The notes: a model not told the origin generated them from the sequence alone. Shown: positions 4,404 through 32,200, counted from the first letter of the stretch. The stretch is DNA of 64,000 bases from GCF_054482525.1 NZ_CM137006.1, one strand, 5' to 3'. A program made the numbers and translations.

Positions 4404-5374
<971 letters not shown>

Positions 5375-6532
5375 TTATTGTCCTGCGAGTTGCTGAAGGG
5401 CTGTGATGACGCGGTCGGCATCGGCGGTGGTCATATCCGGGAACAGCGGCAACGAACAGATGCGTTCGCTATTCCATTCGGTATTCGGTAACGACAGCGT
5501 GGGAAAACGCTCGCGATAATATTTTTGTGTGTGAGCGGCGCGGAAATGTAACCCGGTACCAATGCCTCTTTCTTTTAACGCTTCCATCAACGCATCGCGA
5601 CTGATACCACAACGTTGTTCATCGACACGAATAATAAACAGATGCCAGGCGTGAACGTGCGGCCAGGCGGGAAGGCTTAATGGCTGAAAGGGGAGAGCTG
5701 CCAGTGCTTGCTGATATTGCTGGGCAATTTCGCGCCGACGGGTGTTGAGGTGCTCTAATTTGGCTAACTGGGTCAGGGCAATCGCGGCGTTAATATCGGT
5801 CAGATTATACTTATAGCCCGGCGTTAAGACTTCAGCTTGCGGTGCACGGCCCCAGGTTTGTCTGTCATAGGCATCGACACCCAGACCGTGAAATTTTAGC
5901 ATCCGTAGCTGGCGGGCAAGGTTTTCATTATCAGTAACAATCAGGCCACCTTCCGCACAGGTAATATTTTTGATGGCGTGAAACGAAAAAATAGCGGTAC
6001 CTTTTGCGCCAATATGTCGGCCTTTGTAATACGTACCGACGGCATGGGCAGCATCTTCGATAACTGCGATGCCGTAACGTTCGCCAATGGCGCGAATGGC
6101 GTCAATATCTGCTGGCGCACCGGCATAATGCACCGGAATGATGGCTTTAGTGCGTGGCGTAATGGCTGACTCGATCGCTTCAGGCGTGACCATCAGCGTA
6201 TCGCGGTCGACATCCACCATTACCGGCGTTGCACCCAACAAGGAGATCATATTGAGGGTTGAAACCCAGGTCAGGGAAGGCGTAATCACTTCATCGCCCT
6301 TGCCAATTTCCAACGCCATTAGCGTGATATGCATTCCGGCGGTGGCTGAACTGACCGCGATGGCATGCTGATTTCCCGTCAACTGGCAAAAGGCTTGTTC
6401 AAGCGCCTGATTCTTCGGACCGGTTGTGATCCAACCGGATTCGAGAACCTCTTTAACTGCAGCGAGTTCCTCCACGCCCATTGCTGGTCGCGAAAAAGGC
6501 AAAAATTCTGACATTGCTTTTCCTTCCGCCAT
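5375..6532 (-). CDS. arnB: UDP-4-amino-4-deoxy-L-arabinose aminotransferase ArnB
   Basis: ORF 5375..6547 contains [28 protein letters not shown]...; start chosen at MAEGK, upstream in-frame start at 6547 also possible. Confidence 0.85.
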
Positions 6533-6613
6533 TGAATACCTGTCCACTTATATTTGCTATAAAGAGTGTTGTGTATATTTTGCCATTTGGAGCAAAATTT
6601 TAAGGATAGAATA

Positions 6614-6629
6614 TTAACTTAACCTTAAG
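6614..6629 (-). promoter_or_regulatory. Putative PmrA/BasR box upstream of arnB (CTTAAG-N5-GTTAAT on minus strand)
   Basis: Direct-repeat hexamers with 5-nt spacer read on the arnB strand about 80-100 nt upstream of the arnB start; matches the known PmrA half-site pattern. Confidence 0.45.
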
Positions 6630-6821
6630 AAACTAATATTAGACGTAAATATTGAAATTTTTATATTTTTTCTTATTTAGGCTTTGCATTTGGCAAAATT
6701 TTGAGGCATTTTGCCGGCATCGCAGGATTTTTAATATTACACCAACTGCTAATTATCGCCAGAAATGTCGCTCAATTTCACGGTAATTGTCTGGTTGCGC
6801 TTGTCTATAGGTGGAGTTTAC

Positions 6822-7424
6822 GTGTTAGCTTTTTGCCGCTCTTCGTTGAAGTCAAAAAAATATTTCATCATTTTACTGGCGCTCGCTGCAATTGCCGGAC
6901 TGGGTACTCATGCCGCCTGGAGTAGTAATGGTTTGCCACGTATCGACAATAAAACACTGGCCAGACTGGCACAGCAGCACACGGTTGTCGTTTTGTTTCG
7001 CCATGCTGAACGTTGCGATCGTTCAACCAATCAATGCTTGTCAGATAAAACAGGTATTACGGTCAAAGGTACCCAGGATGCCCGTGAACTGGGCAACGCT
7101 TTTAGCGCTGATATCCCTGATTTCGATCTTTATTCCAGTAATACCGTCCGGACCATTCAGTCGGCGACCTGGTTTTCAGCGGGTAAAAAGCTGACGGTAG
7201 ATAAACGACTTCTTCAATGCGGTAATGAGATTTATAGTGCAATTAAGGACTTACAAAGCAAAGCACCTGATAAAAATATCGTTATTTTTACCCATAATCA
7301 TTGCCTGACATATATTGCTAAAGATAAGCGTGATGCGACATTTAAACCTGATTATCTGGATGGTTTAGTCATGCATGTGGAAAAAGGCAAAGTTTATCTG
7401 GATGGGGAATTCGTTAACCACTAA
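6822..7424 (+). CDS. ais: Lipopolysaccharide core heptose(II)-phosphate phosphatase Ais
   Basis: GTG at 6822 gives (M)[25 protein letters not shown]..., 200 codons; in frame with the longer track ORF 6765..7424. Confidence 0.85.
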
Positions 7425-7433
7425 ATTTTCAAT

Positions 7434-7453
7434 CTGACAGCCAGTAATGGCTG
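7434..7453. terminator. Hairpin between convergent ais and nudI (gacagcc-agtaat-ggctgtc)
   Basis: Perfect 7-bp inverted repeat with 6-nt loop in the 38-bp gap between two convergent genes. Confidence 0.4.
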
Positions 7454-7462
7454 TCATCATTG

Positions 7463-7888
7463 TTACAGAAGACCTTTCAAACGTAACGTTTTTCGGGTGG
7501 CGACATTCAAATCATAATGCACCAGATCTTCAGGTTTTACCCACGCGTAGTCCTGAAACTCTTCGTTTATTTTCACTTCTCGGTTGGCAGAAACGCAGTC
7601 AAAAATCAGGTAAATCATATAAATCTCTTCCTTGCGACCATCTGCATACGTCTTGGTGCGAATATCATCGCTGAAGGTCCACGGCGTGATTTCTGTCAAA
7701 AGCAGCTGTTCTCCCAGTTCTTCGCGAATTTCGCGGCGTAGTGCCTCTTCAATTCGTTCGCCAGGCTCCACGCCGCCACCCGAAAGCGCCCATTGACCGG
7801 GGAAAACGCCGCGATCGTCGGCCATTTTACACAGCAAATAAGCACCATCATTTTGAATCAAAGGGCATACAATAGTCCGTTGTCGCAC
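7463..7888 (-). CDS. nudI: Nucleoside triphosphatase NudI (Nudix hydrolase)
   Basis: ORF 7463..7984 contains (V/M)[59 protein letters not shown] (Nudix box); start placed at GTG 7888 to give 141 aa. Confidence 0.8.
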
Positions 7889-8166
7889 GGGGATATTCCT
7901 TATAAATAAAAAGAAACCATGAGAATACGGTAACTCAGAAATATGTGAAAGTGACAGTAATCTCTTTTGCGATGATAACTGCACTTATTATTATTTTTGT
8001 GTGTATCGATAAAGTGTGTTTATTTTTTCGGCGTTTAATTATTTAAGAAGTATTTAGTTACAATAAGTGACTAGATCCCTTTTTTCGCTCATTGAATCCT
8101 CTGTGCCAGGCAGTACAATCCCGCAGCTTTGGGAATTTTGATTTATTGCTTGTGGGAGAGGGGAAA

Positions 8167-26294: not shown

Positions 26295-28580
26295 TCAGAT
26301 CTTACATGCGCCGCTTTCGCAGCCATCGTCCTGGATTGACGGCACCAGATCGTCTTGTGCGTCTTCAGCACCGTCACGGGTGTTCTGATAATACAGCGTT
26401 TTGACCCCGAATTTGTAGGCGGTGAGCAGGTCTTTCAGCAGTTGCTGCATCGGCACTTTTCCTGACGGGAAGCGTGACGGATCGTAGTTGGTGTTAGCAG
26501 AGATCGACTGATCGATAAATTTCTGCATGATACCCACCAGTTGCAGATAGCCATCGTTACCCGGCATTTCCCACAGCAGTTCATAGGCGTCGTGCAGATG
26601 CTCGTAGTCCGGCACCACCTGGCGCAGAATACCGTCTTTCGACGCTTTGATGCTGACGTAACCACGCGGCGGTTCAATACCGTTAGTGGCGTTAGAGATC
26701 TGCGAAGAGGTCTCGGACGGCATCAGAGCAGAAAGCGTGGAGTTACGCAGGCCGTGCGTTTTGATTGACTCACGCAGTGCTTCCCAGTCGTAATGCAGCG
26801 GCTCATTAGCGATGGCATCCAGATCTTTCTTATAGGTATCGATCGGCAGGATCCCTTTCGCGTAAGTGGTTTCGTTAAACCACGGGCACGCGCCTTGCTC
26901 TTTCGCCAGCTCATTAGAGGCTTTCAGCAGGTAATACTGAATGGCTTCGAAGGTTTTATGCGTCAGGTTGTTGGCGCTGCCGTCGGAGTAGCGTTTACCG
27001 TGCTTCGCCAGGTAGTAAGCGAAGTTGATCACACCAATACCCAGCGTACGACGACCCATCGCTCCACGTTTGGCGGCCGGGATCGGGTAATCCTGATAAT
27101 CCAGCAGCGCGTCGAGTGCGCGTACTGCCAGAATCGCCAGCTCTTCCAGTTCATCCAGGCTATTAATTGCGCCCAGGTTAAAAGCAGACAACGTACACAG
27201 CGCGATTTCACCGTTCTCGTCGTTGACATCATTCAGCGGTTTGGTCGGCAGGGCGATTTCCAGGCACAGGTTAGACTGGCGCACTGGCGCGATGGCCGGA
27301 TCAAACGGGCTATGGGTATTACAGTGGTCAACGTTCTGAATATAGATACGACCGGTAGACGCACGTTCCTGCATCATCAGCGAGAACAGTTCAACGGCTT
27401 TCACACGCTGCTTGCGGATGCTGTCGTCTTTCTCATATTTGGTGTACAGGCGTTCAAACTCTTCCTGATCGGCGAAGAACGCGTCGTACAACCCCGGTAC
27501 GTCGGACGGGCTGAACAGGGTGATATCTTCACCTTTCAGCAGACGGGTATACATCAGTTTGTTGATTTGTACCCCGTAGTCCATATGACGCACGCGGTTG
27601 CCTTCCACCCCACGGTTGTTTTTCAACACCAGCAGGCTTTCAACTTCCAGATGCCACATCGGGTAGAACAGCGTAGCTGCACCGCCACGCACACCGCCCT
27701 GAGAGCAGGATTTCACCGCTGTCTGGAAATGCTTATAGAACGGAATACAACCGGTATGGAACGCTTCGCCACCGCGAATCGGGCTACCCAGCGCACGAAT
27801 ACGCCCGGCGTTGATGCCGATCCCGGCACGCTGGGAAACGTATTTAACAATCGCGCTGGAGGTGGCGTTAATGGAATCCAGGCTGTCGCCGCACTCGATC
27901 AGTACGCAGGAGCTGAACTGACGAGTCGGGGTACGCACGCCGGACATGATTGGCGTCGGCAGCGAAATTTTAAATGTGGAAACCGCGTCGTAAAAACGCT
28001 TCACGTATTGCAGGCGCGTTTCACGCGGGTAGTTCGAGAACAGGCACGCGGCAACCAGAATATAAAGGAACTGGGCGCTTTCGTAGATTTCGCCGGTCAC
28101 ACGGTTCTGCACCAGATATTTGCCTTCCAGCTGCTTAACCGCAGCATAAGAGAAGGTCATATCACGGTCGTGATCGATAAACGTGTCCATCTGCTTGAAC
28201 TCTTCTTCCGTGTAGTCTTCCAGCAGATGATTATCGTATTTGCCCATCTCGACCATTTTCACCACGTGGTCGTACAGCGCAGGCGGCTCAAACTGGCCGT
28301 AGGCTTTTTTACGCAGGTGGAAGATCGCCAGGCGCGCGGCGAGATACTGATAATCCGGCGCATCACGGGAGATCAGGTCTGCGGCAGCCTTGATAATGGT
28401 TTCGTGGATGTCAGAGGTCTTGATACCGTCATAAAACTGAATGTGGGAGCGCAGTTCGACCTGGGAAATCGAAACGTTATGCAGTCCTTCTGCCGCCCAA
28501 TCCAGAACGCGATGGATTTTGTCGAGATTGATGCGCTCTGTGCTACCGTCGCGCTTTGTCACCAGCAGATTCTGATTCAT
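26295..28580 (-). CDS. nrdA: Ribonucleoside-diphosphate reductase 1 alpha subunit
   Basis: 761-aa ORF beginning MNQNLLVTKRDGSTERINLDKIHRVLDWAAEGL (ATP-cone) and ending ...CESGACKI. Confidence 0.95.
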   Translation of the reverse strand: MNQNLLVTKRDGSTERINLDKIHRVLDWAAEGLHNVSISQVELRSHIQFYDGIKTSDIHETIIKAAADLISRDAPDYQYLAARLAIFHLRKKAYGQFEPPALYDHVVKMVEMGKYDNHLLEDYTEEEFKQMDTFIDHDRDMTFSYAAVKQLEGKYLVQNRVTGEIYESAQFLYILVAACLFSNYPRETRLQYVKRFYDAVSTFKISLPTPIMSGVRTPTRQFSSCVLIECGDSLDSINATSSAIVKYVSQRAGIGINAGRIRALGSPIRGGEAFHTGCIPFYKHFQTAVKSCSQGGVRGGAATLFYPMWHLEVESLLVLKNNRGVEGNRVRHMDYGVQINKLMYTRLLKGEDITLFSPSDVPGLYDAFFADQEEFERLYTKYEKDDSIRKQRVKAVELFSLMMQERASTGRIYIQNVDHCNTHSPFDPAIAPVRQSNLCLEIALPTKPLNDVNDENGEIALCTLSAFNLGAINSLDELEELAILAVRALDALLDYQDYPIPAAKRGAMGRRTLGIGVINFAYYLAKHGKRYSDGSANNLTHKTFEAIQYYLLKASNELAKEQGACPWFNETTYAKGILPIDTYKKDLDAIANEPLHYDWEALRESIKTHGLRNSTLSALMPSETSSQISNATNGIEPPRGYVSIKASKDGILRQVVPDYEHLHDAYELLWEMPGNDGYLQLVGIMQKFIDQSISANTNYDPSRFPSGKVPMQQLLKDLLTAYKFGVKTLYYQNTRDGAEDAQDDLVPSIQDDGCESGACKI

Positions 28581-28655
28581 GTATGTCGTACCTGTTTTTG
28601 GAATTCTTCCGCAATAGTTTCATGCAGACTACCTGTAGTGAGGGAAGCTGCTTAG

Positions 28656-28741
28656 AACACTATATATAGGGGGTATGTTTGGGATTCACTGCAAGATAGT
28701 GTGAAAATGGCCCTCTTGCAAGTGCATAACTTTGTGGATAA
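28656..28741 (-). promoter_or_regulatory. nrdAB promoter region: two NrdR boxes and a DnaA box
   Basis: aacactatatatagg (about 28656..28671) and cactgcaagatagtgtg (28687..28703), centres about 32 bp apart; TGTGGATAA (28733..28741) is the complement of TTATCCACA. All lie 75-160 bp upstream of nrdA. Confidence 0.6.
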
Positions 28742-29274
28742 CTCAGGAAGGAAAAAGTGGCTTTCGCGCACCTTAGGTCAGACAAGGTGTCCGGGAAAGT
28801 CAATGGGAGGAGAAAAATTTGTTAAAAATAACTGTTCGGCGATTTCTTGAACGGAAGAATAGGTTAGATAAATTGATGTAGATGGTTTATTAATCTTTTG
28901 GCTAATGATTGCAAAAATTGATCTAAGCACGAGTCATCACATAATCTGATGTATCAGTTATGGTCAATATATAAGCGAATGTAAGCGGTTGTTGATGTCG
29001 AAATGGTTGTTTTCTCTTCGGTTGTTGTTAAATGAGAAGCCATTTTGTTAATTTACCTTATATTATAAGAAAATTATTCATTACTTTAATTCAGTTTAAA
29101 CATAACTGATATCCCTTAAGGTGATTAACTTGAATTATGACGCACTGATATTATTCATGAAATAATAACAAAATAGCCATTGCACCGGGTTGAACAATTT
29201 ACAAAAGAAAAATAACCCATATCGTATAATGCGATTAAATATGCCGTCTTATAGAAAATGATGGTCAGATTAAT

Positions 29275-32200
29275 ATGCGGATTATTTTTCTACGCAAGGA
29301 GTATTTATCTTTACTCCCGTCAATGATTGCATCTCTTTTCTCTGCTAACGGTGTCGCGGCGGCCATTGATTCATGTCAGGGATATGATATCAAAGCGAGT
29401 TGTCACGCCAGCAGGCAAAGCCTTTCAGGCATTACGCAGGACTGGAGCATCGCCGATGGGCAATGGCTGGTTTTTTCGGATATGACCAATAACGCCAGCG
29501 GTGGGGCCGTATTTTTGCAACAAGGAGCGGAGTTTTCTCTATCGCCAGAAAATGAAACTGGAATGACTCTGTTTGCCAATAATACTGTCTCAGGAGAATA
29601 TAATAACGGCGGGGCAATATTTGCTAAAGAAAACTCAACGCTGAATCTTACTAATGTTATTTTTTCCGATAACGTTGCAGGTGGCTATGGTGGCGCAATC
29701 TATTCTTCTGGTACTAACGATACCGGTGTCGTCGATTTAAGTGTCACTAACGCCGTGTTTCGCAATAACATCGCTAATGACGGCAAAGGTGGTGCAATTT
29801 ATACCATCAACAATGACGTCTATTTAAGTGAAGTTATTTTTGACAATAACCAGGCATATACATCAACAAGTTACAGTGATGGCGATGGGGGCGCAATCGA
29901 TGTCACCGATAATAATAGCGATATCACGCATCCGTCAGGTTTCACAATAATAAATAACACCGCATTTACAAATAACACTGCCGAAGGTTATGGCGGGGCA
30001 ATTTATACCAATAGCGTGACGGCTCCCTATCTTATTGATATTTCGATTGATGACAGCTACAGCCAGAACGGCGGCGTGTTAATCGATGAGAACAATAGCG
30101 CGGCAGGTTATGGGGATGGTCCTTCCACTGCGGCGGGCGGCTTTATGTATCTCGGCTTAAGTGAAGTTACCTTTGATATTGCCGACGGAAAAACGCTGGT
30201 TATCGGCAATACAGAGAATGACGGAGTTGTTGACTCTATTGCTGGTACCGGGGTAATCACCAAAACAGGTTCCGGCGATCTGGTACTTAATGCAGATAAC
30301 AATGACTTTACTGGCGAGATGCAGATAGAAAACGGTGAGGTTACCCTGGGTCGCAGCAACTCCCTGATGAATGTCGGAGATACTCATTGCCAGGACGATC
30401 CGCAAGACTGCTACGGTCTGACGATAGGGAGTCTTGATCAGTATCAGAATCAGGCTGAGCTAAACGTTGTCTCGACCCAACAAACTTTTGTGCACGCATT
30501 GACGGGCTTTCAGAATGGCACTTTAAATATCGATGCTGGTGGCAACGTTACTGTTAATCAGGGCAGTTTTGCTGGCACCATCGAAGGTGCTGGTCAGCTC
30601 ACCATTGCGCAAAACGGCAGCTACGTGCTGGCAGGGGCACAGTCGATGGCGCTAACCGGCGATATAGTCGTTGATGATGGTGCGGTGCTTTCACTGGAAG
30701 GCGACGCGGTAGATCTTGCCGCTCTCCAGAACGATCCGCAGTCGATCGTGTTAAACGGCGGCGTGCTTGATCTCTCTGATTTCGCCACCTGGCAGAGCGG
30801 CACATCATACAACGATGGCCTTGCAGTCAGCGGCAGCGGCGGTACGGTTATCGGCAGTCAGGATGTGGTGGATCTCGCAGGGGGCGACAATTTGCATATC
30901 GGCGGCGACGGGAAAGATGGCGTCTACGTGGTGATCGATGCGGGCGACGGGCTGGTTAGCCTGGCAAACAATAATAGTTACCTGGGCACCACGCAAATCG
31001 CTTCCGGTACGCTGGTGGTGAGCGACAACTCGCAGCTTGGCAGTACTGACGAAAACCGTCAGGTGATCTTTACCGATAATCAACAAAGCAGTGCGATGGA
31101 AATTACCGCCGACGTTGACACCCGCTCAGAGACGACAGGTCATGGTCGGGATATTGAAATGCGTGCCGATGGTGAAGTAATGATCGATACAGGCATGGAT
31201 AGCGAGTGGGGCGCACTGATGTCTGACAGCAGCGGGCAACATCAGGATGAGGGTAGCACATTGACTAAAACGGGGGCGGGTACACTGGAGCTGACCGCCA
31301 GCGGTACAACACAGTCAGCGGTACGTGTCGAAGAAGGCACCCTGCAAGGCGATGTTGCGGATATCCTTCCTTATGCTTCGTCGCTGTGGGTCGGTGACGG
31401 GTCAACGTTCGTTACTGGCGCGGATCAGGATATTCAGTCAATTGATGCTACTTCCAGCGGCACTATCGACATCAGCGATGGTACGGTTTTGCGCCTGACC
31501 GGGCAGGATACTTCCGTCGCCCTTAATGCCTCACTGTTTAACGGCGATGGAACGCTGGTGAATGCCACCGATGGCGTGACGTTGACAGGCGAGCTTAATA
31601 CCAACCTTGAAACTGACAGCCTGACTTATCTTTCCGACGTAACAGTTAATGGCAATCTGACCAATACGTCCGGTGCGGTCAGCCTGCAAAATGGCGTCGC
31701 TGGCGACACGCTGACGGTAAACGGTGATTATACCGGCGGTGGTACGCTACTGCTCGATAGCGAATTAAACGGCGATGACTCGGCAAGTGACCAACTGGTG
31801 TTGAACGGTAATACTGCTGGCAACACGACCGTGGTAATTAATCCCATTACGGGTATTGGTGAGCCGACATCTACAGGCATTAAAGTGGTTGATTTCGCAG
31901 CCGATCCAACGCAATTTCAAAACAGTGCGCAGTTCAGTCTGGCGGGCAGCGGCTACGTCAATATGGGAGCGTATGACTACACGCTGGTGGAAGATAACAA
32001 CGACTGGTATCTGCGATCACAAGAAGTAACGCCGCCATCGCCACCTGATCCCGATCCGACTCCCGATCCTGATCCCACACCGGATCCCGATCCAACACCC
32101 GACCCGGAACCTACGCCTGCTTACCAGCCGGTGTTGAATGCCAAAGTTGGTGGATATTTTAATAACCTGCGGGCGGCAAATCAGGCGTTTGTGATGGAGC

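Follow-up and report, generated by a model that had tools for sequence, protein, structure and literature searches.

Control sites of nrdAB and AT-rich yfaL-side DNA in the divergent nrdA-yfaL spacer of Escherichia coli

The spacer that separates the divergently transcribed nrdA and yfaL genes of Escherichia coli raises two questions: which of its sites form the working control region of nrdAB, and to which of the two genes its long AT-rich part belongs. Both were addressed here in a stretch of 64,000 nt (NZ_CM137006.1 of GCF_054482525.1, hereafter the window), in which positions 28581-29274 correspond exactly to the 694-bp spacer extending from the nrdA ATG (28580, minus strand) to the yfaL ATG (29275, plus strand). 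The window is 100% identical to the chromosome of E. coli PCN033, and the coordinates of nrdA, ypaB and yfaL were taken from the RefSeq annotation of that record. Homologues of positions 28481-29374 occur in 5,423 of the 5,426 complete E. coli genomes. The orthologous nrdAB promoter/operator region of K-12 is 96% identical across the entire spacer and shares the sites collected in Table 1, but for the two leading bases of NrdR box 2 and the loss of 1 bp from the nrdA leader of the present strain. Binding and regulatory results obtained in K-12 are carried over to the present strain by analogy.

An earlier note on this DNA had read it as a control region for nrdAB that carries NrdR and DnaA sites and lies beside the AT-rich upstream region of yfaL. 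This overall reading agrees with the literature on the 96%-identical K-12 sequence, and we are confident that the spacer is a composite in which the nrdAB control region adjoins AT-rich DNA of the H-NS type on the yfaL side. Two further searches yielded no feature: a terminator scan of the spacer region returned no sites, and a match to the Rfam family IS605-orfB-I, found when positions 28300-29500 were scanned at E<=1, was rejected since it reached 17 bits for a gathering score of 94.

Table 1. Features of the nrdA-yfaL spacer, its flanking genes and its copies on phage-plasmids
Feature	Position	Strand	Basis or remark
nrdA start codon	28578..28580	-	nrdA ORF 26295-28580, 761 aa
nrdA leader (5' UTR), ~106-110 nt, with NrdR boxes 1 and 2	28581..28688	-	putative start
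NrdR box 2, TCACTACAGGTAGTCT	28626..28641	-	PWM rank 2/63,985, 11.3 bits
NrdR box 1, CCCCTATATATAGTGT	28657..28672	-	PWM rank 1/63,985, 17.1 bits
NrdR box 0, TCACACTATCTTGCAG, classical upstream box overlapping -10 hexamer	28689..28704	-	PWM rank 18/63,985, 8.0 bits
nrdA -10 hexamer TATCTT	28693..28698	-	read from sequence; CACTATCTTG conserved in 32 type-A loci
Weak third DnaA box candidate, ATTTTCACA, in -35/-10 spacer	28700..28708	-	1 mismatch to TTWTNCACA
ORF ypaB, 47 aa, annotated	28707..28850	+	overlies -35 hexamer, DnaA boxes, HusR boxes
nrdA -35 hexamer TTGCAA	28716..28721	-	read from sequence; 17-bp spacer to -10
DnaA box, TTATGCACT	28721..28729	-	3 bp from TTATCCACA; overlaps first base of -35 hexamer
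DnaA box, TTATCCACA, perfect consensus	28733..28741	-	consensus scan; nrdA-sense strand
HusR (YnfL) box, CACTTTTTCCTTCCTG	28744..28759	-	exact match to K-12 ypaB/nrdA spacer box, PMC12844172 Table 1
45-bp imperfect inverted repeat, 14/22 pairs	28758..28802	.	best imperfect repeat between 28700 and 28880
HusR (YnfL) box, CAGACAAGGTGTCCGG	28779..28794	.	unchanged vs K-12 box in PMC12844172
AT-rich tract upstream of yfaL, 475 bp	28800..29274	.	30.1% GC
H-NS-motif-like site TAGATAAATT, 9/10 match to high-affinity motif TCGATAAATT	28865..28874	+	motif scan
Promoter-like TTGATC-16-CATAAT facing yfaL	28918..28945	+	own promoter scan
Fis-consensus-like 15-mer, GGTCAATATATAAGC	28962..28976	.	sole spacer match to GNNYRWWWWWYRNNC; shuffle mean 0.2
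TATAAT, perfect, candidate proximal -10 without good -35	29225..29230	+	45 bp before yfaL ATG
yfaL, AIDA-I family autotransporter adhesin YfaL/EhaC, 1250 aa	29275..33027	+	RefSeq annotation
nrdA upstream module copies	L086 (P1) 1201-1315; L087 (P7) 1201-1327; L002 4001-4115		matching window 28703-28833

The AT-rich tract and its association with yfaL

The yfaL-proximal part of the spacer differs from its surroundings in base composition, the 30.1% GC of this stretch, which is longer than 300 bp, comparing to 50.9% for the whole window, with 100-bp minima of 24%. The earlier note had described the ~500 bp toward yfaL as extremely AT-rich, which is confirmed, and as carrying phased A/T tracts, which is not: in four sub-regions the Fourier power of AA/TT and A-tracts at 10-11.5 bp was no higher than the mean of dinucleotide shuffles, and a fraction of 0.35-0.88 of the shuffles reached the observed periodicity. 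A scan with the H-NS motif also gave a result at chance level, the single 9/10 match of Table 1 representing no enrichment since at least one such match occurred in 43 of 300 shuffles. Promoter-like sites were slightly in excess, with six in the tract versus 3.5 +/- 1.9 in shuffles, as counted by a simple consensus scan, promoter islands themselves being defined by PlatProm.

Because no phasing was detected and the motif is not above chance, the assignment of this DNA to the H-NS type rests on its AT content and on published K-12 data. The K-12 "promoter island" 2342143_534, reported to be H-NS-bound in all ChIP studies (PMC3661553 Table 1, Panyukov and Ozoline 2013), maps to ~28791-29324; the homologue of this segment is therefore among the 78 listed islands, beside a gene of presumed foreign origin. 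Compared to such islands, the tract displays a weak excess of promoter-like sites and no detected A-tract phasing. In addition, H-NS is flagged in the yfaL/nrdA spacer in an RpoD genomic SELEX table (PMC3946193). The H-NS-type yfaL promoter proposed in the earlier note is thus retained on these grounds but not on that of the phased tracts. The yfaL-proximal ~475 bp would represent xenogeneic-type DNA that came with yfaL, a gene inserted between ubiG and nrdA, and H-NS would coat this DNA, keeping yfaL largely silent.

The ownership of the tract was further approached by comparison with other Enterobacterales, for which 80 loci with close NrdA relatives were fetched, one genome per species, and 79 were analysed. 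The gene ubiG lies immediately upstream of nrdA, in the same orientation, in 68 of the 79, and a divergent yfaL-like gene was found in only five. A distal spacer with a GC content of 29% is restricted to the Escherichia/Pseudocitrobacter yfaL loci, the corresponding values being 34-54% in 17 sampled ubiG-adjacent loci, and this distribution indicates that the AT-rich tract travels with the yfaL insertion. It also bears on the alternative that the 475 bp mainly constitute an upstream activating or cell-cycle element of nrdA, acting through Fis and UP-like sequence, and not a silencer of yfaL. Activation of nrdAB by Fis and by IciA has been reported, and the Fis scan suggested in the earlier note, run here with the consensus, did find one match, located within the tract (28962-28976). 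Nevertheless, genera devoid of yfaL have kept the nrdA promoter core with a distal spacer that, in the 17 sampled loci, is not AT-rich to this extent, and the K-12 tract is documented as occupied by H-NS and as behaving like a silent "promoter island" (PMC3661553), which makes the alternative rather unlikely as the main role. One role need not preclude the other: according to the title of Sun et al. 1994, an upstream AT-rich sequence is required for nrd cell-cycle control, so that part of the tract may serve nrdA as well. Overall, the sequence comparisons support the view that the AT-rich tract would belong to yfaL and its xenogeneic silencing, and not to ancestral nrdA control, with a possible secondary role at nrdA.

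YfaL-like genes were also observed in Enterobacteriaceae bacterium RIT691 (L027) and Rahnella bonaserana (L060), at positions ~1-1840 of these loci. They display 54-55% identity and are divergent, ~660-700 bp upstream of nrdA, at a place where relatives have ubiG, which suggests either that insertion occurred here more than once or that an ancient insertion was followed by losses.

On the yfaL side itself, the TTGATC and CATAAT hexamers retrieved by our promoter scan are those listed in PMC3946193 as a yfaL-side constitutive RpoD promoter. The perfect TATAAT located closer to the gene is kept in K-12 and O157 and reads CATAAT in ST131. Regulation of yfaL by GadE/GadX has been reported. Two repeats of this area may correspond to regulator sites or to chance, namely a 16-nt inverted repeat (81% complementary) that flanks TAACTGATATCCCTTAAGG (29087-29137) and a direct repeat of 31 nt whose copies share 74% identity and lie 110 bp apart in the AT-rich DNA close to yfaL (29098-29238). 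The short direct and inverted repeats designated D1 and I2-I8 in the AT-rich tract were judged compatible with chance at 30% GC.

NrdR boxes and the nrdA core promoter

For NrdR, a position weight matrix (PWM) was trained on the four boxes of E. coli nrdHIEF and nrdDG only (oligonucleotides from PMC12176259), the nrdAB sites being kept out. The PWM scan called for in the earlier note confirmed NrdR sites in the spacer, with three boxes occupying ranks 1, 2 and 18 of 63,985 in the window. Counted from the nrdA ATG, they occupy the interval 46-124 bp upstream, and all three possess C4 and G13. Their linkers are of 15 bp (box 2 to box 1) and 16 bp (box 1 to box 0), corresponding to start-to-start spacings of 31 and 32 bp, respectively. 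Box 1 has two mismatches to the consensus; box 2 combines C4, A6, T11 and G13 with a central AG; and position 6 of box 0 is a C, not an A. A scan for box pairs that allowed linkers of 15 or 16 bp put box 2+1 (28.4 bits) and box 1+0 (25.1 bits) ahead of all others in the window, far from the next best pair (10.6 bits) and from the best pair of each of 100 dinucleotide shuffles (mean 12.7, maximum 20.3).

The earlier note had recognised two NrdR-box-like palindromes ~32 bp apart and linked them to the known control of nrdAB. These palindromes are real and correspond to the classical pair formed by boxes 0 and 1; there are, however, three in-phase boxes and not two, and the working pair published for K-12 is another one. 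Microscale thermophoresis with K-12 oligonucleotides gave a Kd of ~113 nM for box 1+2 and of >6000 nM for box 0+1, and this 2025 study concludes that the true NrdR site consists of boxes 1 and 2 (PMC12176259). The failure of box 0 has been put down in a 2026 preprint to the C at position 6, a C6A change resulting in a 10-fold higher affinity. Our own PWM ranking agrees with the published K-12 result, and the functional operator of the present strain is very probably, as predicted from both, box 1 plus box 2.

This places the operator downstream of the transcription start and not over the -10 hexamer. The hexamers of the nrdA promoter match the consensus at 8 of 12 positions, which falls under the threshold of the consensus promoter scan; CACTTGCAA, which contains the -35, is conserved in most type-A genera (see below). 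From the -10 hexamer, transcription would start at ~28686-28690, so that NrdR boxes 1 and 2 would both lie in the transcribed leader. In the model favoured here, a sigma-70 promoter (TTGCAA, 17 bp, TATCTT) would start a leader of ~106-110 nt, and NrdR loaded with ATP plus dATP would assemble as a tetramer on box 1 and box 2 in that leader and repress when dATP is plentiful.

Two main layouts of the nrdA promoter were found among the 79 loci, in the ~250 bp upstream of nrdA. Type A (32 loci, in genera that include Escherichia, Yersinia, Serratia, Rahnella, Hafnia, Edwardsiella and Dickeya) has a TTGCAA -35, a TATCTT -10 inside box 0 and a DnaA box upstream. In type B (42 loci), the -10 is TAGAAT and is located upstream of both NrdR boxes, while three DnaA boxes directly follow box 1, in the leader. 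Type-B regions (Citrobacter, Enterobacter, Raoultella, Kluyvera, Pantoea, Erwinia) resemble that of E. coli by having box 1, a box 32 bp upstream of it and DnaA boxes, but differ by having neither box 2 nor yfaL, their upstream neighbour being ubiG. The two layouts are distributed across, not along, family boundaries. Apart from a few loci in which it is degenerate (L083 and L085, for instance), box 1 reaches 12-18 bits across almost the whole set of 79, and nearly every locus also has a box 32 bp further upstream. A full box 2 was found only in Escherichia, with a weak version in Pseudocitrobacter. Of the 32 type-A loci, 17 carry a CACTA half-site 16-18 nt after box 1, for ca. 0.4% expected per locus, these loci being related so that the counts are not independent.

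According to the classical model, the operator is formed by box 0 and box 1, 32 bp apart, and NrdR bound over the -10 and the start directly blocks RNA polymerase; box 0 indeed covers the -10 region and the start site, as described in the 2026 preprint. The 16-bp linker and the helical register fit this model and the score of the pair is far above those of shuffles. Almost all of the 79 loci have kept a box here, a conservation that is nevertheless confounded by the overlap with the -10 hexamer TATCTT. In Salmonella, mutation of either annotated NrdR box raises nrdAB expression (PMC2892513). Against these stand the more than 6000 nM measured for the box 0+1 oligonucleotide versus 113 nM for box 1+2 and the explanation of this defect by C6, an earlier gel-shift experiment in which, as related in PMC12176259, mutation of box 0 caused no loss of binding, and the PWM, which places box 0 only eighteenth. 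Taken together, the classical pair is improbable as the operator. The equivalent of box 0 scores higher in the 42 type-B loci (mean 8.4 bits) than in type A (6.4), the common type-B form ACTCACCATATAGCGT reaching 11.0, and since its position is kept throughout the order, box 0 may have some role. With box 1 plus box 2 as the operator, box 0, which lies over the -10 hexamer in helical register, would be at most a weak auxiliary site.

The nrdAB boxes resemble the operators of E. coli nrdHIEF and nrdDG, which also consist of two 16-bp, partly palindromic boxes with C4/G13 and a 15-bp linker, and for which NrdR affinities similar to that of nrdAB have been reported (PMC12176259). They differ from these by the third in-phase box (box 0), by the central AG of box 2 instead of AT, and by the location of the operator in the transcribed leader.

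Some variation was observed in box 2 and in the leader. The first two bases of box 2 (28640-28641) are TC in the present strain and in ST131, GT in K-12 and O157 and GC in an E. coli representative (L006), and the remaining 14 positions are invariant across these five sequences. The K-12 form (GTACTACAGGTAGTCT) and that of the present strain have nearly equal PWM scores, 11.2 and 11.3, respectively. Between box 2 and the ribosome-binding site (~28600-28611), the leader of an ST131 strain (L004) has a 13-bp deletion (GGAATTCTTTCCG, plus-strand reading) and the present strain has its 1-bp deletion relative to K-12 in the same stretch.

DnaA boxes, HusR boxes and the ypaB reading frame

A single DnaA box upstream of nrdA had been noted earlier. 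The consensus scan found the perfect box TTATCCACA at 28733-28741 together with a second one, TTATGCACT, at 28721-28729, both 9-mers matching TTATNCACA and the pair abutting the -35, so that the promoter has two tandem boxes plus a weak third candidate, and not one box. Lone boxes of the relaxed consensus TTWTNCACA are not rare, with eight in the window for 5.3 expected, and TTATCCACA and TTATGCACT are the sole same-strand pair within 20 bp in the 64 kb. Type-A genera share the TTATCCACA box upstream of the promoter. In Escherichia and Pseudocitrobacter this box is located 10 bp, or one helical turn, nearer to the -35 than in other genera having the same promoter type (L031, L033, L046, L060 and others), a position that creates the tandem pair.

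In a review, three DnaA boxes are described at nrdAB, one of which is specific for DnaA-ATP, with low occupancy activating and high DnaA-ATP repressing the promoter. The candidate ATTTTCACA would be this third, DnaA-ATP-specific box. Low occupancy of the tandem boxes at the -35 would stabilise RNA polymerase, and high DnaA-ATP would spread toward the promoter, probably via the weak 9-mer of the -35/-10 spacer, and repress.

Further upstream in the nrdA-proximal part of the spacer (~230 bp, 28581-28810) are the HusR/YnfL boxes and the 45-bp inverted repeat. A "45 bp inverted repeat" is described in the literature as required for nrd cell-cycle regulation, and the one detected here is probably this 1998 element. 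As single-stranded DNA it has only a modest hairpin potential (z = -1.8) and it was therefore treated as a protein site and not as a structure. One of the two HusR boxes, CAGACAAGGTGTCCGG, lies inside the repeat, which raises the idea that HusR, or a competitor of HusR for this repeat, could be the missing trans-acting factor of nrd cell-cycle regulation; we regard this as a very long shot, and the 2026 HusR paper (PMC12844172) mentions neither the repeat nor the cell cycle.

The upstream module of nrdA also exists outside the chromosome. Copies of positions 28703-28833 were found in ~318 plasmid records and 15 phage records, and all the records with a copy that were inspected are P1/P7-type phage-plasmids, in which the copy is located ~40-110 bp upstream of hot, a homologue of Pol III theta. 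P7-type copies are 94.5% identical to the chromosomal module and P1-type copies 78-83.5%. The copies retain the -35 hexamer and both DnaA boxes, those of P7 having also the HusR boxes and the 45-bp repeat, and they end precisely at the point where box 0 and the -10 hexamer would start. The 235 plasmid matches to positions 28703-28817 were discarded as a novelty, since they belong to P1/P7-type phage-plasmids and the P1 GenBank record already notes a 56-bp similarity to an E. coli region with two DnaA boxes; the longer P7-type match, 128 bp at 94.5%, is not annotated. In the P1-like, 112-kb plasmid p2 of E. coli EC19 (L002), hot and humD are adjoined by apbC and metG, two housekeeping genes usually found on the chromosome (4957-8115).

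Finally, ypaB is doubtful as a coding sequence and is probably not a real gene, because it is interrupted in E. albertii, has lost its ATG in ST131 and overlaps the nrdA promoter and regulator sites. That its conservation reflects the coding constraint of a real protein is highly improbable: although the ORF is annotated by RefSeq in most E. coli, is open in Pseudocitrobacter, P1 and P7 and has an mRNA reported as HusR-dependent (PMC12844172), it is cut short by an in-frame stop, codon 18, in E. albertii, is not annotated in ST131, is full of known regulatory sites and diverges in the phage copies as fast at the protein as at the DNA level outside the DnaA-box block, and its apparent essentiality in a CRISPRi study was explained by the nrdA promoter lying within it.

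Implications for nrdAB control

The sites described here are ordinary and belong to already known biology, to which nothing new in kind is added. The expression of nrdAB sets the supply of dNTPs and is coupled to the initiation of replication, so that the placement of the operator matters for models of this coupling. The outcome is a current site map for the present strain that takes in the 2025 revision by which boxes 1 and 2 became the NrdR operator. Independent scoring puts box 2 above box 0, and the AT-rich half of the spacer would be part of the yfaL insertion and not of ancestral nrdA control.
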